28,792 nt of DNA from a virus (Duplodnaviria; Heunggongvirae; Uroviricota; Caudoviricetes), in the IMG/VR virus record IMGVR_UViG_2778261570_000004, positions 1 to 28,792 of that record; one strand, given 5' to 3'. The first letter of the stretch is position 1; every line of letters begins with the position of its first letter. The notes below the pieces were generated by a model. The model ran no database searches and had not been told where the DNA came from. It worked only from the letters and a program-made list of their open reading frames with translations. Both the position numbers and the translations under genes were made by a program. Below are positions 727-27,393 of the stretch, in pieces.

Positions 727-747
727 ATATGTTAGAAAACTAATTTT
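727..747. promoter_or_regulatory. operator-like motif copy 1 (ATATGTTAGAAAACTAATTTT) overlapping promoter-like AT-rich region
   Basis: Member of a motif family recurring at least 9 times in the window; sits about 20 bp upstream of the 757 ORF. Confidence 0.5.
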
Positions 748-756
748 GCAAAAACA

Positions 757-1977
757 ATGGGAACTGCAATGAGTCAACAAACTGATACTTCTAATCTGGA
801 AATCATCTCAGCCGCGATTGAAACGCTGCGGACACAGATCGCCCTTATTCAAAAGCGGAATCCGGGGGATGACCTGTCCAGACGGTTACATGAGAGCGTC
901 ATTGCCACGACTGATAACCTGGTCGCGGAGATCAACCAGCTACTTGAGGAAGGGACGGTTGATTACAACAAGCTGGTGGATCAGTTTGAGGAATATCAAC
1001 AAGCTGTTAATGATGGCTTGCTCCGTTTTTCACGAGTCACAGGCGTATCAGCGACAGTTGAAAGTCTTGGCGATGCTGTTAATCAATTTGCCGCGAGTAT
1101 GCGTAGTGAGATCGGCAATCTGGAAGCGCGTCTTGAACAGGCAAACACACTGCGCAAATCCGCAGAAGCCGATTTGAGTCGTTACAAAAAAGACTATCCA
1201 GCCAGCCTGTCAAAACGACTGGATGTTGCGGAGAAGGATAACCGTGCGCTGAAAAGAGAGCGTCGGGAACTAAAAGAGCGTTTAACAGAGCTGAATCAGC
1301 AGTGCATTAAGTATCAAGGCGAAGGTGTCACACTGCGTAAAAAGTTAGCAGCAGCGCAGAACATTATTGAAACGCTGAAACGAGAGTGTTCACAGCTTGG
1401 TCATGATCTGAACCGCGCTTGTGGTATGGGACAAAGGCCAGAGACATTCCCGCTCATGTATGACGGGGTGGATGCTATTGCCTATATCCATGAGTACCCG
1501 CATGGTCTGGTTGCGGAGACTGGTCAGCGTGGTGAAGCTCTGTTGACGGCTAATTACCATCAACAAATTAGAACCAACCGCCTGCTGACGATGGATGTGA
1601 TCCCATCAGTATGGGGAACGCCGCTTTACTATCGCCTGCCCGGCTTCGAAACGGACTGGAATACCGATATAGACGAATGCCTGGCAGATAAAATTATGGC
1701 GTACCTGGAGACTGATTTCCCGCGCCTGCATCGCCGGATTATGGACTCTAAGGATGCGCCGATCGATGAATTGAAAATGCGCCCAGAGACGTTGGAAGCT
1801 ATCAAACAGACTGCGTTTGATACCGTATTCAGCGTGGCCTGTATCCCAAGTAGTTTTCATGAAAGCATCCCCTTTATGCAGGGCGACCGTCGTCAAGAAA
1901 TTATTGATGCCTGCCGGGTGTGGGCTAACGAATGGGACAAGAAGAATGGGGGCGTAGAAGATCTTTATGGGAAATAA
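757..1977 (+). CDS. coiled-coil protein of unknown function (406 aa; start may be ATG at 769)
   Basis: Long ORF; N-terminal half heptad-rich with charged residues, C-terminal globular region; bracketed by operator-like motifs. Confidence 0.6.
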   Translation: MGTAMSQQTDTSNLEIISAAIETLRTQIALIQKRNPGDDLSRRLHESVIATTDNLVAEINQLLEEGTVDYNKLVDQFEEYQQAVNDGLLRFSRVTGVSATVESLGDAVNQFAASMRSEIGNLEARLEQANTLRKSAEADLSRYKKDYPASLSKRLDVAEKDNRALKRERRELKERLTELNQQCIKYQGEGVTLRKKLAAAQNIIETLKRECSQLGHDLNRACGMGQRPETFPLMYDGVDAIAYIHEYPHGLVAETGQRGEALLTANYHQQIRTNRLLTMDVIPSVWGTPLYYRLPGFETDWNTDIDECLADKIMAYLETDFPRLHRRIMDSKDAPIDELKMRPETLEAIKQTAFDTVFSVACIPSSFHESIPFMQGDRRQEIIDACRVWANEWDKKNGGVEDLYGK

Positions 1978-1996
1978 TATGTTAGAAATCTAATTT
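1977..1996. promoter_or_regulatory. operator-like motif copy 2 (ATATGTTAGAAATCTAATTT)
   Basis: Same motif family, immediately after the stop of the 757..1977 ORF. Confidence 0.45.
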
Positions 1997-2132
1997 CATT
2001 AAAAGAACATATTGATTGTGAGAGTAACTTAACTTAGAATTTTCCTTGCTGGTGGAGCGTTGCCACATTTCGCTTGCTGGGCTTGATAGTCACTTATTGG
2101 TTGTTGTTCGCCCACCAGCAAATAACAAATTA

Positions 2133-2150
2133 AAGTGTTAGAAAATTACA
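2133..2150. promoter_or_regulatory. operator-like motif copy 3 (AAGTGTTAGAAAATTACA)
   Basis: Same motif core GTTAGAAAA. Confidence 0.4.
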
Positions 2151-2634
2151 TGCATACAGGGACTCGCTTTGGCACCGAGCAAGCCAAAGTTCAGCAGGTT
2201 TAGTGCGTAAAGTGGTTTCAGAGAGAGCACTTTACGGAGTAAACAACAAGACATGTTGAGCCACGGAAGGTCTTTTTAAGATGTTCATTGATGATGGTCC
2301 GGCAGAGAGTAACGGGACTCGCCGCATCGAATCATCATCAATGCACATCCTCAACATTAAGGAGGCATAGGGATTTTTTTGTGGCGATTACCTTTTGCCC
2401 TAAGTCTCCTTAATGTTGCGGTAATGCACCTATGCGGATGCGGCCTTGCATTGTGTCTTGAAAGAATGGGGTAAGGCCGGGGATATCCCCAGGGGGAGGC
2501 ACCCCCGCTGCAACGAACAGCCACAGACGGCAGTCGAGTGATGGAAACGTGCAAAGACTTTAAACCTCGTTACGGCTGGCGTGGCAAACGCGACAACCGA
2601 GACAGAGCGGTGACGGGCGGAGAGAGTGCCGCAT

Positions 2635-2756
2635 CAAGAAAGAAGCCGACTTGTGATCCCTTTCTGCGGGCATTTGAAAGTGAATCCAGCTCAGGCAGTC
2701 GGCTTCTTTCTTGTGTGAGATGTAGCGTATTTGCCCATCTTCGGGTGGGCTTTTTT
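2635..2756 (+). ncRNA. candidate structured small RNA: 17-bp perfect inverted repeat hairpin followed by intrinsic terminator
   Basis: CAAGAAAGAAGCCGACT (2635-2651) pairs perfectly with AGTCGGCTTCTTTCTTG (2697-2713); GCCCA-loop-TGGGC plus T6 at 2733-2756; no credible CDS. Confidence 0.35.
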
Positions 2757-2930
2757 AGGGTTTTCGTCATGGTTAGCGACTTTGCGGCGGTTTAGAACCC
2801 GACCATTAAAGTAAATGCAAACGATGATCTGATGATGGTAGCGGCCTAAGAAGCCTGACGCCACGGGGTATGAGTCGTCCCCCGTCAAAAAATCGACCGC
2901 AGAGTGTCCCCGTCTGTGTATTAGGGAACG

Positions 2931-3026
2931 GGGAGGCATAACAGGCAAGGGCGCTGGTGTGATTAACCAGATGAATGAGAAGGGTCAGGTCTTTCTGGTC
3001 AGCGCCCTTACCTGTTACGTCCCTCC
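2931..3026. repeat. long imperfect hairpin, module copy 1 (ACAGGCAAGGGCGCTG / CAGCGCCCTTACCTGTT)
   Basis: About 26-bp stem with one G-U position; shares ACAGG-AAGGG / CCCTTACC-GTTG arms with copies at 3373, 3583 and 4993. Confidence 0.45.
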
Positions 3027-3216
3027 CGCGTAACAGCCATTGATTAATGGCTTTCTGGGATAACATCCTACTACGGGTATATCCCGTCATGCTGAAGGCG
3101 CTAATCACGCTGGAAGCCAGGGTTGTGCATCCCCTGTTACCGAATTGCAGCCAGGGCGCGGTGCGCCGAAAAGCATACGGAGGTGGAAGCCCTCGCCGGA
3201 GACGTACCCGGCAAGT

Positions 3217-3292
3217 GATGGTGTAGCTCAGCGGTTAGAGCGGTTGACTGTTAATCAACGGGTCGATGGTTCAAATCCATCCACCATCGCCA
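3217..3292 (+). tRNA. tRNA-Asn (anticodon GTT)
   Basis: Manual cloverleaf: acceptor GATGGTG/CACCATC, D-arm GCTC..GAGC, anticodon loop CTGTTAA, T-arm GATGG-TTCAAAT-CCATC, encoded CCA. Confidence 0.85.
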
Positions 3293-3294
3293 AT

Positions 3295-3370
3295 GCCGGT
3301 TTAGCTCAGTTGGTAGAGCGCCTGCCTTGTAAGCAGGATGTCAGCGGTTCGAGTCCGTTAATCGGCACCA
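3295..3370 (+). tRNA. tRNA-Thr (anticodon TGT)
   Basis: Manual cloverleaf: acceptor GCCGGTT/AATCGGC (one G-U), anticodon stem CCTGC/GCAGG with loop CTTGTAA, T-loop TTCGAGT, encoded CCA. Confidence 0.85.
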
Positions 3371-3372
3371 GC

Positions 3373-3460
3373 ACAACAGGTAAGGGTATTTTGCGACGTC
3401 GGAGATCGCCGAGCTTGGCAGAGGGTTCGAATCCCTACGAAGTACCCTTACCGTTGTGAT
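3373..3460. repeat. hairpin module copy 2, containing a T-arm-like GGTTCGAATCC (tRNA-like remnant)
   Basis: Arms ACAACAGGTAAGGG / CCCTTACCGTTGTG; internal AGGGTTCGAATCCCT; does not fold as a canonical 76-nt tRNA. Confidence 0.4.
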
Positions 3461-3582
3461 GAATGCGCAGGCTGATGCGCGAAAGACATTGCAGCTATTG
3501 CGGAAAAGAGCTGTTCGGCGGGGCAATTAAACGCCCGTGAGAGTCTGAAATAACCGCAAGCCGGAGATCAGCACCGGTCATC

Positions 3583-3657
3583 ACAACACAACAGGTAAGG
3601 GCATTCTCCCTTATGGGGCTTGGCTTAAATGCATCGAGTGCTCTTACCGTTGTGATG
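3583..3657. repeat. hairpin module copy 3
   Basis: CATCACAACACAACAGGTAAGGG ... CTCTTACCGTTGTGATG. Confidence 0.4.
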
Positions 3658-4018
3658 AAGTGCAGCTCTTTGAAGCAACCAGAAGATAAGCATCTGGCTT
3701 CACAACATAAACCGCAGGAACGACCAATAAACGGTAGTCCGTATGGAGAACACCCCGTTGAGGAAGAGGCCTGGCCGGAACCGTAACCGGCACTATAACG
3801 TTGAGAACACTGGCGTAACGGGTTCATATCCCAATCTACAGGTCCACCAGGAATGCTCTTTCCGTTGCGGTGAATGCGGCTAAGCGCACGCGGAACAGTT
3901 AAAACAATCCTCCTTAATGGTTAAACATTCCGACGTTAATTGTTAACTGGTTAACGTCACCGGGAGGCACTCGGCACCGCAATCTAATAAATATGTCACT
4001 TTTATTGAGGGATAACCA

Positions 4019-4453
4019 ATGTTCGGTAAATTGTTCGGCAAGAAAGTCGCTTCTGCAAAAGTAGAGCTGAAAAAAGTTGAGAATCGCGATCTGATGGAGG
4101 CCATCATCGGTGGCTGTTTGTTGGTGTCTGCCGCTGATGGTGAAATCGAAAAAGAAGAAACAGCGAAACTTGATCAGCTTGTCCGCTCTAATCCGCGTCT
4201 TAGTCATTTTGGTAACGAAATTACTGCAACAATTACCCGCTTTACCGAGCAACTGGAAGCTGGCTTCCGTGTTGGTCGCATGAATATCCTTCGCGAAATT
4301 GAAGATATCAAAAACGATCCAAAAGAAGCGGAAGAAGTATTCGTTAACATGCTGACAATTGCAGAAGCGGACGGTGAAATCGAGCCAGCAGAACACAAAG
4401 TACTGGAAGAAGTAGGCCGTCGTTTAGGTCTTCGTGTGGAAGATTATCTGTAA
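4019..4453 (+). CDS. TerB-like protein (tellurite-resistance TerB family; resembles P1 TciA)
   Basis: Repeated ADGEIE...E motif (SAADGEIEKEE, AEADGEIEPAEH) typical of TerB; SD GAGGGA before ATG. Confidence 0.65.
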   Translation: MFGKLFGKKVASAKVELKKVENRDLMEAIIGGCLLVSAADGEIEKEETAKLDQLVRSNPRLSHFGNEITATITRFTEQLEAGFRVGRMNILREIEDIKNDPKEAEEVFVNMLTIAEADGEIEPAEHKVLEEVGRRLGLRVEDYL

Positions 4454-4617
4454 TGGCAAGCAAGGCACGTATCGCAATCGCCATTGGTTTTCTCTTGCTG
4501 TCCGTGCTGGTGGATTTCACCAGCACAATCCTGTCAGTTTTATCGGACGGGGCGTTGGTGGCAGTAGCTGTAACATTGGTATGGCCGATATTAAAAACAG
4601 CTTCTAAGGATCAGTGA
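4453..4617 (+). CDS. small hydrophobic peptide (54 aa), translationally coupled (TAATG)
   Basis: MASKARIAIAIGFLLLSVLVDF...; stop/start overlap with TerB-like gene; below track size cutoff. Confidence 0.45.
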   Translation: MASKARIAIAIGFLLLSVLVDFTSTILSVLSDGALVAVAVTLVWPILKTASKDQ

Positions 4618-4724
4618 TGGGCTTCTGGGATTTTGCTGACAAGCATCCAATTGTTCTCGTTGTCATTGCTGGCATAGTTGTAGGCGGTATTGCTGGCGTC
4701 ATAGAAGCACTCAGGAAACAGTAA
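4617..4724 (+). CDS. small hydrophobic peptide (35 aa), translationally coupled (TGATG)
   Basis: MGFWDFADKHPIVLVVIAGIVVGGIAGVIEALRKQ; stop 4 nt before the tRNA. Confidence 0.4.
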   Translation: MGFWDFADKHPIVLVVIAGIVVGGIAGVIEALRKQ

Positions 4725-4727
4725 TCC

Positions 4728-4803
4728 GGCCCTTTAGCTCAGTGGTTAGAGCTGGCGACTCATAATCGCACGGTCACCGGTTCAAGTCCGGTAGGGGCCA
4801 CCA
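4728..4803 (+). tRNA. tRNA with anticodon CAT, ileX-like (Ile2 if lysidine-modified, otherwise Met)
   Basis: Acceptor GGCCCTT/AGGGGCC, anticodon loop CTCATAA, T-arm CCGG-TTCAAGT-CCGG, encoded CCA; strongly resembles E. coli ileX as recalled. Confidence 0.85.
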
Positions 4804-4992
4804 TATTTGGTTGTAACACGGCGTCTGGCACATGCGTCGTTAGCGGTCTGGTGACGTTAAAAGGGGGGAACCTTGCCCCTAGCTCAGGCAACGAACCAGG
4901 TAGCCGGAATGTGCAAGCCACCGTTTGTTGTTTCTCGGGTAAAGGGATTCACCATCCTGGCGATTCGGTGTGACAGCCGGGAAGAGTACGGC

Positions 4993-5045
4993 GCACAACA
5001 GGAAAAGGCGTTTAATTAACGTGAGCGCCGTTTCCGTTGTGGTAA
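4993..5045. repeat. hairpin module copy 5 (ACAACAGGAAAAGGCG / CGCCGTTTCCGTTGTGG)
   Basis: Same arm family as 2931, 3373, 3583. Confidence 0.35.
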
Positions 5046-5262
5046 TTGCGGCTATGCGCTCGTGACGAAGCCATTTTCATTCACTACGTTCTGATAAGTG
5101 ACGTCGCCAGGAGTGGCTAACCTGGCAGGTGGAGGCACCACCGCCACAACTCCTTTCAATTCATCATATAGCCGCTCAGGCTGTAACCCTTAATTAATAC
5201 GAAGTTTCGACATCTCTATCGGTTTAACCGAGGGATGGTCGCGCGTGTAAAAAGGAGACGTT

Positions 5263-5838
5263 ATGTTAACGGCGAACGATAACGCGTATGCAGAAGCAGA
5301 TCTCATATTCAGTGACTTCATCGGTCAGCGGGAACGCTGGACACAAAAGCGAGAGGAACTTTATGCCTCGTTAGTTCGCAAAGGTGTCAACATTGAAACC
5401 GCTCAAAGCGGCGATATGACGGTAGTCAGTGTTGGATTACATGGTGTGAGCGTGTCCGCAGCCAATCATGAGCCATACGTAGCGTTATCCGAGTCGATGG
5501 CAAGGCTAATTAAGTTTCTGAAGCAAACAGAAGCCAATAATGTTTTCATCGCCAAAAAGAACATCAATTTTTCTGCCGCCATGTTCTGGATGATGAAGGG
5601 GCTGGATGCCCGCCGGGCATCATGGCCTAAAGGGAGCTATTTATCGATGTTCCGTGGCAGCATTGGCAGCAAAGAAAAGCTCTTCGAATTCTTGCCGGAA
5701 GAGGCATTCGATATTGTGGAAGGGTGCGATGTGATGGTTATGCCTCGCCTGGTAATGATGAATGGGGATTTACAGGCGCAGACAGACTGGTTCGCAACTG
5801 GCGTGGATATTATCGCAACTGACTGGGAGGCATTCTGA
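5263..5838 (+). CDS. hypothetical protein with C-terminal DUF2829-like domain (191 aa)
   Basis: SD AAGGAG; C-terminal AAMFWMMKGLDARRASWPKGSYL...QTDWFATGVDIIATDWEAF resembles the DUF2829 pattern. Confidence 0.6.
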   Translation: MLTANDNAYAEADLIFSDFIGQRERWTQKREELYASLVRKGVNIETAQSGDMTVVSVGLHGVSVSAANHEPYVALSESMARLIKFLKQTEANNVFIAKKNINFSAAMFWMMKGLDARRASWPKGSYLSMFRGSIGSKEKLFEFLPEEAFDIVEGCDVMVMPRLVMMNGDLQAQTDWFATGVDIIATDWEAF

Positions 5839-6230
5839 TGTACGAGACAACAAAATTAAGCATTCACGAAGTCTCCAACGTGGAGTGGAATATCGTCACC
5901 TGTAAGATTGTATCGTGTAATGCTGCGCGTACTGATGCAGGCCATAAGAGCACGATAACAGGCTACATGGTAATGGCTTATAGGGGATTGAGAGTTCGCT
6001 TTATCTGGAAAGCTCGGCAATTGACACCATTCAGAGAGCCGTCAATGCCATTAGAGGTAGAACAGGATTATTTAAGCCTGCCGGAAATAGACGGTGCAAC
6101 GCTGGTGGATTCTGATGGTCGTAAGGCTGATTTTGAAGTCAGCTTAAAGGTGGCGCAGGCCGTAATTAATAACTCACGTGGTAAGTGGATCGCTAAGGTA
6201 AAACACGTCGTTCGCTTATCTCGCTGGTAG
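5838..6230 (+). CDS. hypothetical protein (130 aa), coupled to upstream gene (ATGA overlap)
   Basis: ORF with start overlapping preceding stop. Confidence 0.5.
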   Translation: MYETTKLSIHEVSNVEWNIVTCKIVSCNAARTDAGHKSTITGYMVMAYRGLRVRFIWKARQLTPFREPSMPLEVEQDYLSLPEIDGATLVDSDGRKADFEVSLKVAQAVINNSRGKWIAKVKHVVRLSRW

Positions 6231-6338
6231 TGTTAGATGAATGGAATTAATTTTCTAATATAACCAACTTTTTGCCAGTCTATACAGAAATAACATTCTC
6301 ATTATCATCCCCTCGGTCATTTCCTGCCCGGGGGATTA

Positions 6339-6731
6339 ATGGAGCATATCAGCAGCGCAGAAATTGCGGATATCATGATTAGGGCTGACTGCTATCTGAC
6401 AGTCACCGAAATTACCACTCTAGCTAAAGAAAAATATCCTCACCTTCATGTTTCACGCGTAAGTGTAACCAACATCATTCGGCATTTTGTGCGGTCAAGC
6501 CGAGCTATTTGTGAGCTTGATGATCGTGTTTACCCACGGAAATACTGGTTGCATGGCCTGAACGGATATCAGTTCAAGGTGCGCGGGCGCACCCCTGAAT
6601 ACGGCAGTTTGCTGGTTAAAAACTGTAGCCGGAAGTCTGCAGAACTGGCGCGACAAGAGCAGCGCAAGCTGGTGGACATGGCTAATAAGCTGTGGAATGC
6701 CGCAGTTAAAAAGCGTGGTGTTGCTTTATGA
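6339..6731 (+). CDS. hypothetical protein immediately upstream of terminase genes (130 aa)
   Basis: ORF; 4-nt overlap with terminase small subunit gene; position analogous to a late-gene activator in P1-type phages, not verified. Confidence 0.55.
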   Translation: MEHISSAEIADIMIRADCYLTVTEITTLAKEKYPHLHVSRVSVTNIIRHFVRSSRAICELDDRVYPRKYWLHGLNGYQFKVRGRTPEYGSLLVKNCSRKSAELARQEQRKLVDMANKLWNAAVKKRGVAL

Positions 6732-8092
6732 GCCTTGTTAATTGGGAAGAGCACCGCGCCAAATTTATAGCGTTGCGTGAAGAAAAAGGGATCACCGTAA
6801 AGGAATACTGCGAGCAACACGACCTTAGCTTCAATACCGCCAGAAAGCATCTCAATATGAAAAAAAATGAGGTGCGGTCGCAGGTGAAGACTACAAAAAA
6901 AAGCACCAAATCACCTGAAAAAAAACGGGCAGGAAGAGCAAAAAAAAGGCCAGAAGAGGGTACAGAAACAACAAAATTTACAGAAACTGACAATTCACAG
7001 AGCGGAAGTTCTTTCCGGAGCATGCCGAGAAAGAAAACTTCGGATCATAAAAATAACGACAATAATAACAATGAGATAAAAGAATCTGTCAGGAGATCAT
7101 TGCGCGAAAAAATGGCGAAAATGATCCCCACCGAAGATAAATGCGCCTCAAAAATCGAGGGATCTTCAGCAATGATCCCTGGCGGTGCTGTGCAGCGTGC
7201 CACGTTGCCCACTACGAGTGTGGCTCGCGACATGATGAAGAACGGCGCAGAAGAGCACCTGCGGTTAGCAATTCAAATGGCGCAAGAACGCGCACTTCAG
7301 TACCAAAGCATTGTTGATCAGGAGGCCGAACGCCTACAGGCGGAGATAGACGCCCTGGGTGATGAACAGCCAGAAGGAATGCACCCTGGGCAGCGACTTC
7401 TCGGTCTAATCAGTGACGCGGCCTACTACATGAACGATTTTATCAGTAGGTTGGCAGCGATATATCAGTCCGAACAAAAGCTGCGACAGGGTGATGAAAA
7501 ACTTCGTCAGGGTGCTCGCCAGCAAGCATTCAGAGAGGCCGAGGCCAGAGAAAAACTCGAATTAGCACGCCTACAGGCCGAACAGCGTGGCAAAGAGATT
7601 GAATATCGCATTGGCGCTGACGCACGCGCAGCCAGAGTTATCGCCGCCGCTATACGTATGCGTGAGCGCGAGGAGCTGGACGATATCGGTGTTGCTGAAT
7701 ACATCGAGCGTCAGGGTGTCAGTGTCCCGGCTATCCTCGCGGCGCGCGCGGCGAAAGCTATCACTCTTCTCGAACCTCCAGTTTCTGACATCAATGATGT
7801 TGATGATGAACAGCTGGACAAAGAAGCGAAGGAGTTTGCATCGCTTCAGGCTAACCATCCGCAATGGCTGGCAGAGCGCCGGGCGGATGTGGCAACCATT
7901 GTTGAAGATCTGGGGTGCGGAGATTACGACCACAATGGCGAGCGTAAGGCTGGGGAATTCGAGGCCAACGATGAAGAGTTGGACATTGACCCTTCGGCAA
8001 CGGCTGAAATTTACGGTGATTATGATGCATCAGATGCAGGGTATGACGCCGGAGATGATGATATTGCGATAGAACCGCCGGAGGATGACTAA
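6728..8092 (+). CDS. terminase small subunit-like protein (PacA-like)
   Basis: N-terminal HTH-like segment, Lys-rich linker, coiled coil, acidic C-terminal tail; TAATG-coupled to large subunit. Confidence 0.6.
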   Translation: MSLVNWEEHRAKFIALREEKGITVKEYCEQHDLSFNTARKHLNMKKNEVRSQVKTTKKSTKSPEKKRAGRAKKRPEEGTETTKFTETDNSQSGSSFRSMPRKKTSDHKNNDNNNNEIKESVRRSLREKMAKMIPTEDKCASKIEGSSAMIPGGAVQRATLPTTSVARDMMKNGAEEHLRLAIQMAQERALQYQSIVDQEAERLQAEIDALGDEQPEGMHPGQRLLGLISDAAYYMNDFISRLAAIYQSEQKLRQGDEKLRQGARQQAFREAEAREKLELARLQAEQRGKEIEYRIGADARAARVIAAAIRMREREELDDIGVAEYIERQGVSVPAILAARAAKAITLLEPPVSDINDVDDEQLDKEAKEFASLQANHPQWLAERRADVATIVEDLGCGDYDHNGERKAGEFEANDEELDIDPSATAEIYGDYDASDAGYDAGDDDIAIEPPEDD

Positions 8093-9667: not shown

Positions 9668-9671
9668 GTGA

Positions 9672-10709
9672 TTACCAGAGTTTAGCGGCGTGCTGTGTTT
9701 GGGAGAAAGTGAACCCGTAACGTTCTTCTATGGTTTTACCGTATCTTTTCCGCGCGTCTGTCAGTTTTATGCCTGTCAGGTCATCTCCGGATGTCATCAT
9801 TACGTCTAACAAATCCAGATCCATTTTATTCAGTCTCGCCATCGCTTCGCGTGCTGTCTGTATTTTACGCTCAATGATATGGCGAATAGCCGGATCGGCT
9901 TCCTCAAGCATTTTGGCTGATTTGTTCTTTAAGCTCTCATTGCGGATGTCGATGTTTCGCAAGATGTATGACTTCGCAACATAGCTTGGTTGGTGTTTCT
10001 CCAGATCGCGAACGCGATAGAGACTAAAGTCACCAAGCAGGCCGCAAGGTATCGACTCAACCCCAGAATAAATAGTAATGCTGCGACGTTCGCCGACATT
10101 ATTAACAACGGGCACTGTGGTGTTCGGAAGTTTTGCGAACACTAAGGCTCCGTGTGCGCCTACCCTGAATCGTGACAGAGCATTGCTGCCTTCAATGTTT
10201 GTTGTAAGCACTACATCTGTGTATCCATCTTTGCGCGCCCGGTAAACTTCCCCTTCAGGTTCTGATGCGAAAAAACGGCGCTCTTCTTCAAGTGCACCAA
10301 CAATCTGCGAAAATATCTTGTTTTTCAGGCTTTTCTTTATAATTGCATCATATTTTTTGAGCAGATTTTCGCGCGTAAATGAGCGGGTGGTGGTCGCGCT
10401 TTGCACAACAATATGCGTGCTTTGATTTGTGTCCTCGATAATGAATGGGATCGGAGAATATACAGACTCAACAATGTTAGACGCTTTGCCGTCAGCGTTA
10501 CGGCACAAGTCAACAAAGGCTTTCCATTCTGTGAGGCACTTTTCAGCTTCTTCTAGCACATTCTGATCATGTGTTAGTGCAACATGGCGGAATTCCTCGC
10601 CGGAATAACTGGTATCATGGAAAACAGAGTTTGCGACCACCAGCTCTTTCCACCGTTCAGCGGTTTGCAGGAACCGTTTGTACTCTTTCTCGATCGACTT
10701 CTTACTCAT
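9672..10709 (-). CDS. hypothetical protein (345 aa) at the position occupied by the c1 repressor in P1; candidate master repressor
   Basis: Long ORF convergent with terminase, divergent from recombinase; operator-like motif 15-35 bp upstream of its start; no motif recognised by eye. Confidence 0.55.
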   Translation of the reverse strand: MSKKSIEKEYKRFLQTAERWKELVVANSVFHDTSYSGEEFRHVALTHDQNVLEEAEKCLTEWKAFVDLCRNADGKASNIVESVYSPIPFIIEDTNQSTHIVVQSATTTRSFTRENLLKKYDAIIKKSLKNKIFSQIVGALEEERRFFASEPEGEVYRARKDGYTDVVLTTNIEGSNALSRFRVGAHGALVFAKLPNTTVPVVNNVGERRSITIYSGVESIPCGLLGDFSLYRVRDLEKHQPSYVAKSYILRNIDIRNESLKNKSAKMLEEADPAIRHIIERKIQTAREAMARLNKMDLDLLDVMMTSGDDLTGIKLTDARKRYGKTIEERYGFTFSQTQHAAKLW

Positions 10710-10723
10710 TATTCCTACTCGAT

Positions 10724-10744
10724 TTAGTTTTCTAACATAAAATT
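10724..10744. promoter_or_regulatory. operator-like motif copy 4 (reverse orientation, TTTAGTTTTCTAACATAAAAT)
   Basis: Same motif family; directly upstream of the 345-aa gene. Confidence 0.45.
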
Positions 10745-10910
10745 ACTATGACAAATCTATGCCGAATAACAGGGTGAGTAAAGGATCAAGATGCATTTTT
10801 TTATCATCAAATTTAGAAAATTCTGCTTAAAAACTGCCAGGCATAACTTAAAGCCCACACCAGCAATGCATTGCCCATCTGCGCGGAAAGGAAAAAAATT
10901 CCTAAATTTC

Positions 10911-10942
10911 TAACTTTAGATAATTGGCATTATTTAAAGTTA
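10911..10942. other. rox-like recombination site (TAACTTTAGATAAT-TGGC-ATTATTTAAAGTTA)
   Basis: 14-4-14 palindrome with one arm mismatch; matches the rox target of Dre as recalled at 31 of 32 positions; about 150 bp upstream of the recombinase gene. Confidence 0.8.
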
Positions 10943-11094
10943 GGCTATAATTATGGGTAGATGATCAGTATTGACATCACTGAAAATACGTGCCTCGAAT
11001 CAAAGGCTTGAATCTTGAAAATTAACTTATAGCTACCCTGTCATTTTTATATTTTTCGCGTAGCGTCATCTGTATATAGAGGTTAAATAGTTTC

Positions 11095-12123
11095 ATGAGT
11101 GAATTAATTATCTCTGGCAGCTCCGGTGGTTTTCTGCGCAACATTGGCAAAGAGTACCAGGAGGCCGCAGAAAACTTTATGCGGTTCATGAATGACCAGG
11201 GGGCTTACGCGCCGAATACTTTGCGCGATCTCCGGTTAGTGTTTCACTCCTGGGCGAGATGGTGTCACGCTCGCCAGCTCGCCTGGTTCCCGATCTCACC
11301 AGAGATGGCCCGCGAGTATTTTCTTCAGCTGCATGATGCTGATCTGGCTTCGACCACCATTGATAAGCACTACGCCATGCTTAACATGCTGCTTTCGCAT
11401 TGTGGCCTTCCGCCACTTTCGGATGATAAAAGTGTTTCTCTGGCTATGCGGCGCATCCGGCGTGAAGCGGCAACTGAAAAAGGCGAACGAACAGGCCAGG
11501 CTATACCGCTGCGGTGGGACGATCTGAAACTGCTCGACGTCCTGTTGTCCAGGTCAGAACGGCTGGTGGACCTGCGCAACCGGGCTTTTCTCTTTGTTGC
11601 ATACAATACGCTGATGCGTATGTCGGAAATCTCGCGTATTCGTGTAGGAGATCTGGATCAAACAGGTGACACTGTCACGCTACATATTTCACACACGAAG
11701 ACAATAACGACCGCCGCCGGGATTGATAAGGTGCTTTCCCGTCGCACTACCGCTGTGCTGAATGACTGGCTGGATGTTTCCGGGCTTCGCGAACATCCTG
11801 ACGCAGTGTTGTTCCCGCCGATACACCGTAGCAATAAGGCCAGGATCACGACAACGCCCCTTACTGCACCTGCAATGGAGAAAATATTCAGCGACGCCTG
11901 GGTGTTGCTGAATAAAAGAGATGCTACGCCAAACAAAGGAAGATACCGGACGTGGACCGGGCATAGTGCACGCGTCGGGGCCGCTATTGATATGGCTGAA
12001 AAGCAGGTGTCTATGGTGGAGATCATGCAGGAAGGAACCTGGAAGAAACCGGAAACACTTATGCGGTATCTTCGCCGTGGCGGCGTGTCTGTGGGGGCTA
12101 ATAGCCGCCTGATGGATTCGTAA
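11095..12123 (+). CDS. dre: Cre-family tyrosine recombinase, Dre-like
   Basis: Alignable by eye to P1 Cre (HSWARWC, SVSLAMRRIRRE, RNRAFLFVAYNTLMRMSEISRIRVGDL, WTGHSARVGAAIDMA, LMRYL catalytic Tyr); adjacent rox-like site. Confidence 0.85.
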   Translation: MSELIISGSSGGFLRNIGKEYQEAAENFMRFMNDQGAYAPNTLRDLRLVFHSWARWCHARQLAWFPISPEMAREYFLQLHDADLASTTIDKHYAMLNMLLSHCGLPPLSDDKSVSLAMRRIRREAATEKGERTGQAIPLRWDDLKLLDVLLSRSERLVDLRNRAFLFVAYNTLMRMSEISRIRVGDLDQTGDTVTLHISHTKTITTAAGIDKVLSRRTTAVLNDWLDVSGLREHPDAVLFPPIHRSNKARITTTPLTAPAMEKIFSDAWVLLNKRDATPNKGRYRTWTGHSARVGAAIDMAEKQVSMVEIMQEGTWKKPETLMRYLRRGGVSVGANSRLMDS

Positions 12124-12143
12124 ATTAAAATTCTAACACATCT
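12123..12143. promoter_or_regulatory. operator-like motif copy 5 (reverse orientation)
   Basis: AAATTAAAATTCTAACACATC just after recombinase stop and about 55 bp before the next operon. Confidence 0.4.
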
Positions 12144-19150: not shown

Positions 19151-19151
19151 A

Positions 19152-19850: not shown

Positions 19851-19851
19851 A

Positions 19852-21015: not shown

Positions 21016-21111
21016 TTGGCTTCCTCCTTCCGATACATCATGATTACCAGGCCTCCCTTTGTAGTAATGCGGATGGTGCTGCCTGGCTCCATGCTCATGC
21101 CTTTATCCCAA

Positions 21112-22107
21112 TCAGTTATTAAACGTGATTACTCCGCGCTCGATGGCGAAGTCAAAAAGCTGGTTAGCGGCTACGTAAAGGCGTATGCCATGTGCTTTTT
21201 CCCATGCCCGGACATCGTTTTCTGCGCTTCTGGCGCAGTCATCGCAAAGAGGAACAGCCCAGCGGTCGTGTTCGTTTAACGAGCGGGCGCGGTACATGAA
21301 CGGGTGGTTAACTTTGCCACCGCATCCGATGCACGGACGAGAAACCACAAACCGGAGATAAGCCGGGCTTTTACCGAGGACCGCTTTTGGTCGGCGCATA
21401 TAAAGCAGGCCGGAATCCTCATCTACAGACAGGTTGACGATCTGCTCTGCGGTTATGTCCACCAGCTCGCGGGTACTGTGCTCCCAGGTGATATCTGATT
21501 CTTTCAGCGTACCGGTAGGGATTTCAGTTTTTGGCTGACAAAATGCAATGCGACCGGCTTCATCTGGTAGCTCATCTTTCAGATTCCGGCGAATGGCCCA
21601 AAAAGTGAGTTCAACCATGCTCAGATCGCGATCTGGCGGAAGTTTTAACTCGCTGGCAGCCCAGTTCATAATCCAGTTGGCGCGATTCAGTGACAGTTGG
21701 TCTTCCAGCTTGCCGTATCCCTTCATCATGTATTCCGCATCATGCTTCCAGCACAGGCGAACGGCAGAACCGTTATAGAAATGGGTGGTTAGCTGGTGGC
21801 TGCAATCGCGCTTATCATGCGCCTGGCAATCGTGAATGTTGGTGCTAACCCAGTGAACGAGAGAATCCTCACCACCTAACGCGTTAAATACGCGCTCACT
21901 TTGAAAAAAGGGTGCCAGTGACTGGTTGGTAACCAGTGAATAATTCAGGTCAACGACACCATCAGGGGTGTTTTCAGCCTGTTCACGCGGCAATGGGGAT
22001 ATAAGAAAACGACGTCCTGCGCCGATGTAATTGCTGGTGGGCTTATCTACAGGAAAGACAGCCACACCAGTTTCATTTACGACATATGGGGTGATTATTG
22101 CACTCAT
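21112..22107 (-). CDS. hypothetical protein with C-terminal Cys cluster (331 aa)
   Basis: CIGCGG...PLCDDC putative zinc-binding C-terminus. Confidence 0.6.
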   Translation of the reverse strand: MSAIITPYVVNETGVAVFPVDKPTSNYIGAGRRFLISPLPREQAENTPDGVVDLNYSLVTNQSLAPFFQSERVFNALGGEDSLVHWVSTNIHDCQAHDKRDCSHQLTTHFYNGSAVRLCWKHDAEYMMKGYGKLEDQLSLNRANWIMNWAASELKLPPDRDLSMVELTFWAIRRNLKDELPDEAGRIAFCQPKTEIPTGTLKESDITWEHSTRELVDITAEQIVNLSVDEDSGLLYMRRPKAVLGKSPAYLRFVVSRPCIGCGGKVNHPFMYRARSLNEHDRWAVPLCDDCARSAENDVRAWEKAHGIRLYVAANQLFDFAIERGVITFNN

Positions 22108-22146
22108 AATGCATACCGACTCTGTTTTGTTCCGAGCGGTAAAATA

Positions 22147-22187
22147 ATATGTTAGAAAACTAAAATCAATGTTCTAACGTAATTTTG
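22147..22187. promoter_or_regulatory. operator-like motif pair (ATATGTTAGAAAACTAAAAT plus ATGTTCTAACGTAATTTTG)
   Basis: Two motif copies, GTTAGAA and inverted TTCTAAC, in the intergenic gap inside the leftward operon. Confidence 0.45.
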
Positions 22188-22205
22188 AGTGCGTAAATGA
22201 TTTGA

Positions 22206-22898
22206 TCAGACTTTAAGCTGCCCTCCCTTCACCTGCATTAGCGTCAGATTTCCGCAAAAAACCGCACCCGTGTCTATGTAGTGCTGATTCCAGTATGCTT
22301 TTGGTCTTCGTACCGGTGTGTGCCCAAAGATAAAGCGATCTGCGCCTGTGATTTCTCCACCAATGCCATCTATCGAATCACCGACGCGACTGCGCGACCA
22401 GACAACATCAAAAAGCGACACATCCTTACCGAACTGGTACTCTCCACCTGGATAGTCGGCATGGGCTATAACGATAGTTTCATGCCCGGTGTTCAACTCA
22501 ATGATATAGGGCAGACGTCTTACCAACTCCACCAGCGCCCTGGCTAATATTTCCTGATCAGCGTCCAGCATGAAGAACCATTGTCCGCCATTCATTAGCC
22601 AGTTATTCACGTTGCCATCAGGACTTAACGCATCGATCATTAATCGCTCGTGGTTTCCCATAACTGACCGAAACCAGGGCATCTGCAATAGCTCCAGGCA
22701 TTCAACATTTTCGGTGCCGCGATCGATAAGGTCGCCAACCGATATCAGTAAATCCTGCGCCGGGTCAAAATCCACACGATGGAGTTCGGACATCAGTCTG
22801 GTGTAGCAACCATGCAGATCACCAACAACCCATATGTTTCTGTAGCCAGAACCATCAATACGGCTATATAAATTCACTTCATGCATAGCCTGGATCAT
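22206..22898 (-). CDS. Ser/Thr protein phosphatase (lambda-PPase / calcineurin-like metallophosphoesterase)
   Basis: GDLHG, GDLIDRG and GNHE motifs; start set at the ATGA overlap with the upstream gene. Confidence 0.85.
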
Positions 22899-23206
22899 GC
22901 GGCAACCTTCTCCCGCAGCCAGATACAAACTGGACCATCTTCAGTGTCATGGATAGAGCCAACAAACCAGCCTTCACCCTCTGGTCGCTCCGGTTCCCAG
23001 GCGGCAATATCGGGTCCAGCTGCGTCCAGATCAAAATCATCTTCATCCATACTGCGAATAGTCCACTGAAGATTATTTTCCTTCATCCAGGCGTCAAATT
23101 CCTCAGTGGAAATATATTCACGACCTGCGCAAAACTTCTCATACTCCGGATGTGTCCAGCAGCCATATTCATCACGTTCTACCGGCATTTCTTTAATGAT
23201 GCTCAC
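22895..23206 (-). CDS. hypothetical acidic protein (103 aa)
   Basis: ORF, coupled. Confidence 0.5.
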
Positions 23207-23427
23207 TCTTCATCCTCCAAGTCGGCAACGGCCTCCATCACATCAGAACCGCGAATAACCTCAAAAGCACGGCAGGCCATTTCAAACACCTGTTGTTCTT
23301 GCGGATGCGGTGACTCCCAATACTTAAAACCAGGTCGATGCTCGTAACCCATCATGGAATAAAAATCGCCAGCAAGTTCAATCGCGGCATCAACAAGTTC
23401 GCGATTTGTCATCGTCTGTTCTGTCAT
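23203..23427 (-). CDS. hypothetical protein (74 aa)
   Basis: ORF, coupled. Confidence 0.45.
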   Translation of the reverse strand: MTEQTMTNRELVDAAIELAGDFYSMMGYEHRPGFKYWESPHPQEQQVFEMACRAFEVIRGSDVMEAVADLEDEE

Positions 23428-23699
23428 TTGGTTTTCTCCTGTCTGAACATCACTATCATCAGGTCGCCTTTTGTCGCTATTCTGGCTGTTGTGCCTGGTT
23501 CAATGCGGCTAAGCTCAAATGCGTCATAGAACGCTTCTAATGCCTTCTGGCGTAGTTCCTGTTTGCGCCGTTTTTTCCACTCTTTTAGGAAAATGGAACC
23601 CAGCCATCGCCAGGTACGGGACATGATGTAAAGCCAACCGAAAAGTGCCAGACCGGTATTTAGGGCCGTATCGATTGTTATCGTGGTGTCGATATTCAC
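23424..23699 (-). CDS. small membrane protein (91 aa)
   Basis: Hydrophobic segment LALFGWLYIMS followed by basic stretch. Confidence 0.45.
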   Translation of the reverse strand: MNIDTTITIDTALNTGLALFGWLYIMSRTWRWLGSIFLKEWKKRRKQELRQKALEAFYDAFELSRIEPGTTARIATKGDLMIVMFRQEKTK

Positions 23700-23944
23700 T
23701 GTGGTGGCTCCTGCTTTTCTGCCTTCAATACCATGCGAGAACCATCATCCAGCTCCCAATTAATTTCACCGCCTTCTGCCATGACAAGATGCCAAACGAG
23801 TTGTGCGGCCTCGTTGGTTACATCGCGACCGCGATCATTGCCGACACGACGTTTTGTTCCATCCCCTAAGTCACGCATTTTTGCCAACACGATGGTTTTT
23901 GATAGCGGTGAAAAACCAAGCTGTAGTCGTGCTGAATTGCTCAC
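23696..23944 (-). CDS. hypothetical protein (82 aa)
   Basis: ORF, coupled. Confidence 0.45.
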   Translation of the reverse strand: MSNSARLQLGFSPLSKTIVLAKMRDLGDGTKRRVGNDRGRDVTNEAAQLVWHLVMAEGGEINWELDDGSRMVLKAEKQEPPQ

Positions 23945-24606
23945 TGTTTCCCTCCCTTGCGAAGCTGGGCGGCTAACTCGTCACATATGTGCGTCAAGGA
24001 GCAAAGTTTGATTGATGGATGTTCGCGCATCATCTCAACCCCCTGCGCCCGTACTTCAGCTAGGAAAGCGTCGGTGGCTGGCATATTTCCTGTTGCCTTC
24101 ATGGCCTCCAAAATAACCAGAACGCCATCTCTCCCAACCTCCTCACAGATAACCTCAGTGTTGTCGCCAACAACATCGCAGAATGCCTGAACTGCTTTAC
24201 GAGCCAGCTCATTCTCCGCCACCAGCGCCGCGCGATTACCCTCCAGCTCTGCAATGCGCTGTTTTGCGGTATCAAGTTCAATCGATAATTTTTCCAACTG
24301 CTCTTTATGCTTCTTATATTCCTGATATGCGTGCCAGGACTGACCTTTGCGCACACTATCAGTAATATCAGTAATCTGTTCTGGTGTTAGCGTAGTCAGT
24401 GGCTGTGCTGGGAAAATCAGCACTTTCCCGGAATCCCAATCAAAACCAGCGTGAATTGACTGAACCTCAACTGAGGGTGTTGAACCAATGCTGCCAGGCG
24501 AATGAACAACGATCGTTACATCCATATCGCGACGATGGCTGTGGTTGTTGGACAAAATACGATTCACCAACTCAGAAAATTTGGAGAATTTCATGCGGAG
24601 CCTCAA
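23941..24606 (-). CDS. protein with Ea22-like C-terminal module, paralog 3
   Basis: C-terminal TDAFLAEVRAQGV...AAQLRKGGKQ shared with the 20148 protein. Confidence 0.55.
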   Translation of the reverse strand: MRLRMKFSKFSELVNRILSNNHSHRRDMDVTIVVHSPGSIGSTPSVEVQSIHAGFDWDSGKVLIFPAQPLTTLTPEQITDITDSVRKGQSWHAYQEYKKHKEQLEKLSIELDTAKQRIAELEGNRAALVAENELARKAVQAFCDVVGDNTEVICEEVGRDGVLVILEAMKATGNMPATDAFLAEVRAQGVEMMREHPSIKLCSLTHICDELAAQLRKGGKQ

Positions 24607-25013
24607 TATGCAAAATAGACCGTTGCCACGCCGTTATAGTGATCAAACGATACGGCGTTTACTTCATAGCTGGCAGGGAGCTTCGAGCCGAGAACATATC
24701 CGGGCCACGTTTTCCATGGAATTTCTCTGCTCTCACTATCCCCATATACCGTACATCCAAGTGAACCTACAGCCTCGTCAGAACGTTTGCCGCATGTTAT
24801 GAAACCTATATTTTTCTTGCCGGTCTTAATGGCGATTGGGTGAACACTGGCTGATGCATTGGCAGCACGCTGTGACTGTTGGTTTGCGATATTCGCAGAG
24901 TTCGCAGCAGCTACAGCAGCCGTGGTCGCGGCGGTAGATGCCACAATAACTGCTGAAGCCTGCGCCTGTTGGGTAATGGTCAGCAATGCCGCCACAAAAA
25001 TCATCTTCTTCAC
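24603..25013 (-). CDS. secreted protein with signal peptide (136 aa)
   Basis: MKKMIFVAALLTITQQAQA signal-like N-terminus, Ala/Thr-rich linker. Confidence 0.55.
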   Translation of the reverse strand: MKKMIFVAALLTITQQAQASAVIVASTAATTAAVAAANSANIANQQSQRAANASASVHPIAIKTGKKNIGFITCGKRSDEAVGSLGCTVYGDSESREIPWKTWPGYVLGSKLPASYEVNAVSFDHYNGVATVYFAY

Positions 25014-25612
25014 TTGTCAGCTCCTTTGCGAATCTGTTCCGCCCATTCTTCAAGGGATTTCTCCGCATATTCACCGGACAGGCCATCAATCGGGTGCGGT
25101 TCATTAGCCAACTCTTCTTTCGCTGACAGAATCATGCGCGTAACGTCGAAAACTTCACGTAAAGACTTATTGATAAATCCGTGGTTGAAAGCAGCAGCAA
25201 GACGGCTGGCGGTATAGTTAATCCCCTCGTTGCGTGCTTCCGAACGAATTTCAGCAAGGCATTTGCGAAACTCGGAAACGTACTGTTCGACGCTCATTCC
25301 CCAGCTAAGTGGACATTCATTGAATGTTTCGCCTTCGTGCTCTTCATCAGGTAGCTCTTTGGTAAAGAACTCACGTTCAATGGCGTGGAGTGTGTCAGCA
25401 AAACGACGTAAGTTACTCAAACCTGTCGTAATGGAGAATTCAGGAGCATCACATCCGACGCCCATCTGCTGATAAACGGCGGTTTTGAAGGCCTTAAGCC
25501 CCGCATTCTCCGCCGCCAGCGCAGCACACGCTTTCTCAAGTCGGGAAATTTCCGTTACATACTCAGCGTTACGCTCTGCCAGTTGTGCGGGCGTTAAACC
25601 TTCAGACTTCAT
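25010..25612 (-). CDS. coiled-coil protein sharing Ea22-like segment, paralog 4
   Basis: CAALAAENAGLK segment shared with the 20148 protein. Confidence 0.55.
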   Translation of the reverse strand: MKSEGLTPAQLAERNAEYVTEISRLEKACAALAAENAGLKAFKTAVYQQMGVGCDAPEFSITTGLSNLRRFADTLHAIEREFFTKELPDEEHEGETFNECPLSWGMSVEQYVSEFRKCLAEIRSEARNEGINYTASRLAAAFNHGFINKSLREVFDVTRMILSAKEELANEPHPIDGLSGEYAEKSLEEWAEQIRKGADK

Positions 25613-25919
25613 ACACTCTCCTTTCGAAATAAACGTACTGATTAATCATGCCCAGGGGCATTTCGAGTTTTTCCGCGATCTCACGGCGGGGAACACCACA
25701 CTGATGAAGCTGCCGTGCCAGTTCTATATCGCTCTGCCGGTATTTGGCTGACGGATGAAAGTCTCCTTTCAGAATCATGCTGATCCCCAACTCCCGCGCT
25801 TTAGTCCTGACGGCATCACCGGTACGACCGATCAGCTTCCCAATACTCTCGACCGTCATAGTTCCGGCGCACTGGCGGAGTATCATGATTTCTGCCCTTC
25901 CCCATCCCCGCCAGCTCAC
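25602..25919 (-). CDS. small HTH DNA-binding protein (105 aa)
   Basis: Two HTH-like segments (SIGKLIGRTGDAVRTKARELGI, IELARQLHQCGVPRREIAEKL). Confidence 0.5.
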   Translation of the reverse strand: MSWRGWGRAEIMILRQCAGTMTVESIGKLIGRTGDAVRTKARELGISMILKGDFHPSAKYRQSDIELARQLHQCGVPRREIAEKLEMPLGMINQYVYFERRVYEV

Positions 25920-26527
25920 GCAGAACTCCTTCTAACCAAAAGAACGCCATCTTCAGAAACAACGTTGCAGGACTTCAGGTAATTCATTGCCTCTTTCGGT
26001 AATGGATTCTTTGGATCGGCGTTTGCCAGGGATTTCGATAACCTCATGATAAATTTGATCATTACCTTCTGGCGGAGCTTGTGCTCATGAGATAAAGAAA
26101 GGTAATAGGAAATGGTATGGGCTAAACGCTCACGAAGCTGTTCTGTGCCGTGATATACAGCAGCGATATCACGCAGTGCATTGACCAGTTCCCGGTAAAT
26201 ATGCAGAGCAACCTGGCATTCAATGTTGGTTGGTGACTCATAAATTACAGTCAGCCCCAGCTTTTCAGCCAGCGCGTGCTCTGCACGAGCACCAATCGAT
26301 TCCTCCCATCGATTGAGCAAGTAGATCGCATCAGCAGAACGCACCATTGCCAGGCAAATATCCATGTATTCACTCTGACAAAGGCCACCAGGTAACACAG
26401 CTGGATTCAGAACGATATGCCCTTCAGCCATCAGCTCACTCGCTTTCGTATTAAACGCCGCACGGTTGTAATCTGGATAACCAGTCATCGGCCCCGCGAT
26501 GTAAATTTTCAAAACACGTTTCACCAT
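25916..26527 (-). CDS. DUF4406 / nucleoside 2-deoxyribosyltransferase-like domain protein
   Basis: KIYIAGPMTG...W.ES.GA..E pattern; start set at the ATG coupled to the upstream micro-ORF (track ORF extends to 26554). Confidence 0.6.
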   Translation of the reverse strand: MVKRVLKIYIAGPMTGYPDYNRAAFNTKASELMAEGHIVLNPAVLPGGLCQSEYMDICLAMVRSADAIYLLNRWEESIGARAEHALAEKLGLTVIYESPTNIECQVALHIYRELVNALRDIAAVYHGTEQLRERLAHTISYYLSLSHEHKLRQKVMIKFIMRLSKSLANADPKNPLPKEAMNYLKSCNVVSEDGVLLVRRSSA

Positions 26528-26682
26528 CAAAATTTCCCCAAAATCGTGACGCAAAACATCAGCACGGCAAAAAGCTCAATACCAAGTTCAAGTAGCGCCA
26601 ACGCCCCGAAAAACAGCACATAGAACAGGCCAATCTCATTCACAGATGGCTGGTGGATCGCACTTAAAGCTATAAGCATCAT
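26527..26682 (-). CDS. 51-aa hydrophobic peptide, first gene of the leftward operon
   Basis: GGAGG 5 nt upstream of ATG; TGATG coupling to next gene; below track cutoff. Confidence 0.35.
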   Translation of the reverse strand: MMLIALSAIHQPSVNEIGLFYVLFFGALALLELGIELFAVLMFCVTILGKF

Positions 26683-26720
26683 GTCCTCCAAACATTTATC
26701 AGTGATGATATTAATGTTTT

Positions 26721-26757
26721 GTGTTAGAAAATCAATTTTGAATATCTAACTATTTTG
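26721..26757. promoter_or_regulatory. operator-like motif pair in divergent promoter region
   Basis: GTGTTAGAAAATCAATTTT plus inverted ATCTAAC; between the leftward operon and the Ref-like gene. Confidence 0.45.
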
Positions 26758-26799
26758 ATCAATCATAGAAAAATCGTTGAAAAGTAAGAGACTGCCATC

Positions 26800-27378
26800 A
26801 TGCAGAAACAGAGTTATTGGGAGAAACAGAGACAAAAAGCCATGCAAAAATTGGCTGACCCGGCCTGGCGAGAGGAACAAAGGGCAAAGCGCCTTCAACA
26901 AGCTCAACGCCAGCAGCAGCGAGCGAGAGAAAAGGCCGCATCGCCTGAATATCGGCAAAAGAAAAATGAAAAAGCAAAGCAATATGAACAGCGGAGAAAA
27001 GATAAAGCTGTATCCGCTCCGCCCAAAAAAACACGCACGTCACGCGGCCTGAAAGGCAGATCACTCACAGCCGATGAACGCCGGATACAGACCGCTATCG
27101 GTACTCTCCCCTGCATTGCCTGCCATATTCACGGGCAACATAGCCCAGTGGTATCCCTGCACCATATCTTCGGGAGAACGGCAGAGAACGCGCATAAATA
27201 TGTCCTCCCTTTGTGTAAATGGCACCACCAGTACGCAGCGCCAGCCGAGGTCCGAGAACAATATCCCTGGCTGGTCCCTGTTCATGCTGACGGAAAAATA
27301 GGCGGAAAAGCAGATTTCATGCGGCACAATGCCGATGAAATGACGTTGTATCAGATGGCGATTGAATTGATAAATTAG
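26800..27378 (+). CDS. ref: Ref-like protein (basic disordered N-terminus plus Cys/His-rich HNH-like C-terminal domain)
   Basis: N-terminal 85 aa rich in K/R/Q; C-terminal CIACHIHGQH...HHIFGR...CKWHHQ; operator-like motifs on both sides. Confidence 0.5.
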   Translation: MQKQSYWEKQRQKAMQKLADPAWREEQRAKRLQQAQRQQQRAREKAASPEYRQKKNEKAKQYEQRRKDKAVSAPPKKTRTSRGLKGRSLTADERRIQTAIGTLPCIACHIHGQHSPVVSLHHIFGRTAENAHKYVLPLCKWHHQYAAPAEVREQYPWLVPVHADGKIGGKADFMRHNADEMTLYQMAIELIN

Positions 27379-27393
27379 TTTTCTAACATTTTA
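27373..27393. promoter_or_regulatory. operator-like motif copy (reverse orientation)
   Basis: AAATTAGTTTTCTAACATTTT overlapping the stop of the Ref-like gene. Confidence 0.4.

Follow-up and report, generated by a model that had tools for sequence, protein, structure and literature searches.

A D6-type C1 repressor and its probable dispersed operators in a P1-family phage-plasmid

Dispersed operators of C1 repressors

A known immunity system of the kind treated here is that of phage P1, for which 22 dispersed operators of the C1 repressor, with an asymmetric 17-bp consensus, have been reported (PMC8546580). In the immC systems of P1 and P7, monovalent sites occur together with divalent ones, in which two sites overlap in inverted orientation, and sites are also present at c1. 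For phage D6, the two records consulted (AY753669 for the immC region and MF356679 for the genome) annotate c1, rox and dre and no operators, and a description of D6 operators or of the motif discussed below was not found in the literature by a search that left out the two primary D6 papers, so that a prior description is possible. The present analysis concerns a viral DNA stretch of 28,792 nucleotides, the IMG/VR record IMGVR_UViG_2778261570_000004 (positions 1 to 28,792; the whole stretch is called the window hereafter), in which an earlier note, made from the letters alone, had pointed to a dispersed asymmetric motif at operon boundaries and read it as a repressor regulon. It is proposed here, with a probability of roughly 0.85, that the motif is the operator of a D6-type C1 repressor encoded in the window itself.

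The part of the window from pac to c1 is ~90% identical to phage D6, and plasmids of roughly 90 kb from E. coli and Salmonella are 93–97% identical to the window across about 80% of its length, with at least 80% query coverage in 18 plasmid records. Because of these two identities the window is, as judged from its sequence, a D6-like phage-plasmid of the P1 family, that is, a plasmid-prophage. Its gene names were taken from the D6 and plasmid annotations.

An asymmetric motif concentrated in non-coding DNA

The 13-bp core of the motif, GTTAGAAAACTAA, is present in 8 copies with at most 2 mismatches, four of which are exact, compared with 0.65 expected, and in none of 100 dinucleotide shuffles were 8 copies reached. 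When the copies are aligned, an asymmetric motif of ~20 bp emerges, T-R-T-GTTAGAAAA-Y-TAA-w-T-T. A 20-bp matrix trained on the sites of phage D6 alone, with those of the window excluded, detected 10 strong sites of 15–30 bits in the window (Table 1), where block shuffles gave an expectation of ~0.3 at 13 bits or more. Only 12.8% of the window is non-coding, yet non-coding sequence makes up 64% or more of every one of the 10 sites (binomial P ~1e-9), and in the whole D6 genome, with 8.8% non-coding DNA, 14 of the 15 sites are non-coding (P ~2e-14). Even when non-coding DNA alone was subjected to dinucleotide shuffling, 8 hits of at least 15 bits in the window stood against 0.04 expected, and 12 in D6 against 0.1; the matrix used here was trained on window sites, which makes the window figure partly circular, a problem of which the D6-trained matrix is free. 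Chance repeats of AT-rich DNA were considered as the origin of the motif and rejected.

Inverted pairs are found at three loci (6232–6262, 22148–22181 and 26720–26753), in each of which the 17-mers are offset by 11 bp and span 28 bp. At 22148–22181 the two 17-mers overlap by 6 bp and both are strong. The right half of the pair upstream of ref (26734–26753) is weak, at 8.2 bits, and the pair upstream of lpa, GTTAG...TTCTAAT, has a left half (6232–6248) that is weak by score; both weak partners nevertheless stand in the exact register of the strong pairs, here and in relatives. This register is unchanged at no fewer than seven loci in the family, and it recurs at every pair in D6 and its relatives.

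These results bear out what the earlier note had described. Every copy that it listed is real and lies within a few bases of the position given, the sites, which it had called intergenic and next to gene starts or ends, lie in non-coding DNA, and the enrichment exceeds that of AT-rich intergenic DNA, the background against which it had said the reading could be refuted. The inverted partners that it had assigned to the copies near 22147 and 26721 both exist, the former strong and the latter weak. The pair near 6230, which it had called weak, is weak in its left half, and the right half is a strong site.

Conservation of the sites was followed in loci of relatives whose C1 is 72–100% identical to that of the window, and in these all sites occupy equal positions. 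The motif forms an unchanged island amid diverged sequence in three places, namely ahead of the pmgS-like gene, ahead of lpa and within the spacer between c1 and rox; in this spacer, which is otherwise divergent, TTAGAAAA is a conserved island, and the core TTTAGAAAAT is kept in all relatives. The site at c1 is identical in all of them, the core of the site at 2134–2153 is likewise kept throughout, and the site at 12121–12140 is conserved. The site at 1978–1997 becomes a 28-bp inverted pair in relatives with an 81%-identical C1, and the left half of the lpa operator, though weak in the window, is strong in relatives. Farther afield, in three distant relatives with C1 proteins 52, 50 and 45% identical, an unbiased count of 10-mers ranked TGTTAGAAAA first at two of the loci and third at the remaining one, and it lies there ahead of c1 and of lpa, within the c1-dre spacer and beyond dre. 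Distant relatives also carry a full site at the position and in the orientation of the weak window site at 10811–10820.

Comparison with the immC system of P1

The 345-aa open reading frame (ORF) next to the motif copy at c1 is labelled c1 in the D6 immC record. Its product matches PHROG 1678 over its full length, as does P1 C1, its homologues carry the Pfam family PF27008 (Phage_P7_repressor_C1), and it is 20% identical to P1 C1 (BLASTP, E 5e-8). By these measures it is a C1 homologue and a remote relative of P1 C1, which agrees with the earlier note's choice of this protein for binding tests of the motif. Searches of a local copy of Pfam that lacks PF27008 and of PDB sequences gave no matches for C1. 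Compared with the P1 repressor, that of the window is ~60 residues longer, and D6-type C1 proteins bear a C-terminal helical extension of about 60–95 residues (residues ~240–345; window 9672–9974 for residues ~246–345), which is absent from most of the C1 family, where the typical length is 250–285 aa. No similarity was detected between this extension and the P1 corepressor Lxc. The family comprises about 108 clusters at 50% identity, and neither a solved structure nor a recognised DNA-binding domain is available for it. Residues R159 and P88 are invariant across the family, and R41 is nearly so.

With P1 operator positions taken from the protein_bind features of the P1 GenBank record, the sites of the window coincide in genomic position with named C1 operators of P1; they precede the same target operons and agree even in fine placement, an example being the site that overlaps the ref stop codon. 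The dispersal of asymmetric sites after the P1 fashion, which the earlier note had suggested, is thus seen gene by gene. Every window site has a counterpart in D6, and D6 sites before icd/ant, repL and hrdC-dmt correspond to Oc4, OrepL and Odmt of P1. The geometry of divalent sites is shared as well: the two sites of P1 Obanab (68667–68683, plus strand, and 68678–68694, minus strand) are offset by 11 bp, as is the window pair 22151–22167 (plus) and 22162–22178 (minus), an equality that depends on the chosen start of the D6 17-mer.

The operator sequence, on the other hand, differs. The P1/P7 consensus ATTGCTCTAATAAATTT has no match in the window at up to 3 mismatches, as the earlier note had surmised, and similarity between the P1 and D6 matrices, assessed by column shuffles, was not significant (P ~0.05 for the best alignment, with the in-register forward alignment within the null). 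Homology of the two operators had been considered on account of 12 of 17 positions agreeing by eye with the reverse complement, and was dropped in view of the matrix comparison. The core is GTTAGAAAA in the window and TGCTCTAAT in P1, and conservation of the D6 motif reaches 3 bp farther toward the 5' end. At c1, one strong site 11 nt from the ATG takes the place of the Op99a-e cluster of P1, and coi and lxc, features of P1, are both missing from the D6-type system. Since the P1 consensus is absent and the matrices are not significantly similar, the system is of the same kind as P1 immC with a different specificity, or immunity type, and the comparison supports its belonging, as a heteroimmune representative, to the known class of C1/operator systems and not to P1/P7 immunity.

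Repressor and motif change together by clade. D6-type C1 proteins (45–100% identity) go with TGTTAGAAAA, a locus with a 49%-identical Ref has operators of the P1 type, ATTGCTCTAAT, and a third C1 clade (269 aa, ~24% identical) has an intergenic repeat of its own, CGTTAGGAT. GTTAG is common to this repeat and the D6-type core. The third clade probably represents a third immunity specificity. In one element of that clade (L061; Logan SRR31513766, 94 kb, P1-like), CGTTAGGAT is present at 3541, 7176, 8218, 13845 and 17849, among other places.

A possible Tus-like fold of C1

The replication terminator protein Tus of E. coli binds its asymmetric site as a monomer and, via TerB, represses the gene that encodes it. 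When two predicted models of C1 were compared with the PDB, Tus was the sole significant match. The second model (pLDDT 78.7), made for a C1 of 269 aa that belongs to another clade, is ~24% identical and has no extension, matched Tus only, with E values of 2.7e-7 to 2.9e-6. The TM-scores between the C1 models and Tus are low (0.31–0.41), and the two alignments overlap. At the sequence level no homology was found: hhalign gave a non-significant probability of 5% for the C1 family against Tus, and five C1 proteins had no match to Pfam PF05472 (Ter) at E <= 10, at which Tus itself scores 1.7e-136.

The sites invite a similar comparison. Both are asymmetric (Ter sites are 23 bp long), and both stand shortly before the ATG of the gene for their own protein, TerB 13 nt before that of tus and the c1 operator 11 nt before that of c1. 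The Ter core GTTGTAAC, as a binding site, is not what the motif presents. TerB, ATGTT-GT-AACTAA, and the D6-type operator, ATGTT-AGAA-AACTAA, have both blocks in common, with 2 extra bp between them in the operator; a gapped comparison of the motif with Ter gave P ~0.09, which is not significant and is suggestive only. A further difference is that C1, by analogy with P1, would act at promoters. The models thus permit a tentative proposal, to which we give slightly less than an even chance, that C1 repressors of P1-like phage-plasmids could be Tus-fold proteins and that their dispersed operators could correspond, in phages, to Ter sites, a single monomer reading each of them by way of an interdomain beta-sheet, with the D6-type site as a spaced Ter variant. 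No link between Tus and C1 was found in the searchable literature.

Proposed mode of action and alternative readings

In the plasmid-prophage state, one C1 molecule would occupy each asymmetric site of ~20 bp and two would occupy each 28-bp inverted pair. Such sites would overlap or adjoin the promoters of c1, lpa, ref, the tRNA/tci operon, the pmgS-like gene, the dut and DUF968 operons and the immI-like antirepressor operon, and elsewhere in the element they would precede repL, the second icd/ant operon and hrdC-dmt. Bound C1 would sterically exclude RNA polymerase from early and lytic promoters, and a single protein would thereby silence all lytic and early functions while limiting its own synthesis; the site upstream of c1, which lies between a -35-like TTGTCA (just upstream, on the c1 strand) and the ribosome-binding site, is presumed to serve this autoregulation. 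The different specificity of the operators would render D6-type elements heteroimmune to P1. With relaxed promoter scoring, -10-like hexamers directly adjoin many sites (TAAAAT, TAAAGT and, before 22151, TAATAT), and candidate -35/-10 pairs lie over the remaining ones.

Several observations weigh against this account. A strict sigma-70 consensus scan placed no promoter over most sites, the overlaps coming from relaxed scoring only, and the sites point in either direction with respect to the gene downstream. Some could act otherwise, for example as roadblocks, since three of them are located at the 3' ends of genes. Footprinting around 22148, 26720 and 27371 was uninformative, these regions being overly conserved, although variable bases begin immediately outside the 28-bp elements there, for instance around 22148–22181. 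The 200-bp c1-rox spacer holds no ORF for coi, and D6-like plasmids have been reported to be without lxc (PMC6799933). The identification of C1 as the binder, a repressive effect of binding and the number of molecules bound are inferred from the analogy with P1. The sites, their enrichment, conservation and placement, and the homology of the repressor, all at the level of sequence, nonetheless speak for the regulon that the earlier note had read from the motif.

Were the motif instead the target of some other protein of the element or the host, such as another repressor or a nucleoid protein, the same repeats might be seen; the sequence does not by itself name the binder, and the element encodes other small DNA-binding proteins, annotated in relatives as 'transcriptional regulator' and 'DNA-binding protein'. 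This is unlikely, as the placement parallels the named P1 C1 operators gene for gene, the core is constant within the D6-type clade and differs between C1 clades, and the best-conserved copy sits at c1. Still less probable is a promoter element, whether a special -10/discriminator or the target of the late activator Lpa, despite the -10-like hexamers mentioned above, a TAACAT in the reverse complement of the motif and the operons that sites precede. The motif is overly long and invariant for a sigma-70 element and occurs in both orientations relative to downstream genes as well as in inverted pairs of fixed register. The P1 late-promoter box, AAGTGACTT-N4-TAnnnT, is different, with its single match beside an operator and not on it, and a late promoter as the identity of the motif was rejected for this reason.

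Recombinase targets had been set aside in the earlier note, and rightly so, the rox-like site being a different sequence. A polar barrier after the manner of Ter, at which a bound Tus-fold protein would arrest forks or read-through transcription with promoter repression as a secondary effect, is as improbable as a promoter element. It would accommodate the predicted models with Tus as their sole PDB match, the shared ATGTT and AACTAA blocks and the several sites exactly at gene ends (1978, 12121, 27371 and 6232). However, the similarity of the motif to Ter falls short of significance, the sites show no polar pattern of orientation around the D6 genome, inverted pairs would yield non-polar barriers, and repression of transcription by P1 C1 at equivalent sites is well established. 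An operator of the D6-type C1 repressor thus agrees best with the placement of the motif and its change between clades.

Features beside the operators

The spacer between c1 and rox contains two sub-threshold motif cores, the TTTAGAAAAT of Table 1 and another at 10897–10913, whose TTCTAAC, found in some relatives only, adjoins the left arm of rox and overlaps it. Both cores are candidates for weak operators that would link C1 with dre or rox. The rox-like site itself, TAACTTTAGATAATTGGCATTATTTAAAGTTA, differs from that of D6 in one base of the left arm (A to G), and the identical change is found in another locus (L014). A near-consensus promoter, TTGGCA-16-TATAAT (10924–10951), has its -35 within the rox spacer and is directed toward dre.

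Just downstream of the operator at 1978–1997 lies the sole window match to the P1 late-promoter pattern (2022–2040, plus strand, GAGTAACTTAACTTAGAAT), which is conserved in relatives and has its -10 in common with the sigma-70-like promoter at 2012–2040. The two operators that precede the tRNA operon flank a conserved inverted repeat, TTGCTGGTGG (2047–2056) and CCACCAGCAA (2112–2121), which carries the Chi octamer GCTGGTGG on both strands; its two words are among the most repeated 10-mers in two distant relatives (L057 and L059). The repeat could represent paired Chi sites, or it could be an RNA stem, the corresponding location in P1 being that of a dicF-like region. Near the right end of the window, ~550 bp past the operator that overlaps the stop codon of ref, an isrK-like Hfq-binding RNA stands directly 5' of a C4 antisense RNA, as matched with Rfam, an arrangement that constitutes an immI-like antirepressor control module. 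Two icd/ant modules of this kind are present in D6.

Table 1. Sites, genes and other elements of the window, with matrix scores of the sites and the corresponding operators of P1
Feature	Position	Strand	Score (bits)	Placement or remark	P1 operator
Site	728–747	+	29.8	monovalent; between terminator 661–686 and pmgS-like gene; adjoins candidate -10 TAAAAT (723–728)	OpmgRa/b
pmgS-like gene	757–1977
Site	1978–1997	+	27.4	directly after pmgS-like stop codon, 5' of tRNA/tci operon promoter	Obanab, before dicF-like/tRNA/tci/ban operon
Promoter	2012–2040			TTGATT-17-TAGAAT; tRNA/tci operon
Site	2134–2153	+	15.4	second operator upstream of tRNA/tci operon; adjoins candidate -10 TAAAGT (2131–2136)	Obanab
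tRNAs	3217, 3295, 4728	+		tRNA/tci region
Site	6243–6262	-	22.5	strong right half of divalent operator 6232–6262, upstream of lpa	Olpa, before lpa
lpa	6339–6731			late-gene activator; pacA and pacB also in window
c1	9672–10709	-		345 aa
Site	10720–10739	-	25	monovalent; 11 nt upstream of c1 start codon; putative	c1 operators
Candidate weak second site	10811–10820	+	below threshold	core TTTAGAAAAT; c1-rox spacer, faces away from c1
rox-like site	10911–10942
dre	11095–12123
Site	12121–12140	-	22.9	at dre stop codon, upstream of orf117-dut-isaA-like operon	Ossb, C1-controlled ssb-isaA operon
orf117-dut-isaA-like operon	12197 onward			phd/doc also in window
DUF968/pdcB-like gene	21112–22107	-		first gene of long leftward operon
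Site	22148–22167	+	28.0	divalent operator upstream of DUF968/pdcB-like gene
Site	22162–22181	-	20.2	same divalent operator
Site	26720–26739	+	28.6	strong left half of divalent operator 26720–26753, upstream of ref	Oref, before ref
ref	26800–27378			ppp also in window
Site	27371–27390	-	27.0	overlaps ref stop codon, upstream of immI-like operon	Omat, likewise overlapping ref stop codon
isrK-like RNA	27925–28003	+		immI-like region; Rfam match
C4 antisense RNA	28048–28135	+		immI-like region; Rfam match

Significance

The regulon itself is an ordinary member of a well-known kind of system. If C1 does have a Tus-like fold, the fork trap of Tus and Ter, which is taxonomically restricted, and a phage immunity repressor would be linked by common descent, and complexes of C1 with its operators might be polar roadblocks. 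Such a fold, if confirmed, would account for the recognition of asymmetric sites by C1, an oddity known for long, and it would provide a testable hypothesis for the origin of Tus. Independently of the fold, an operator consensus and a regulon map are now defined for the D6 immunity group, whose repressor and operator pairs offer orthogonal targets for engineering alongside the Cre/Dre pair. Phage-plasmids like D6 occur commonly in both E. coli and Salmonella, and for these elements the consensus provides an explanation, at the sequence level, of their heteroimmunity with P1.

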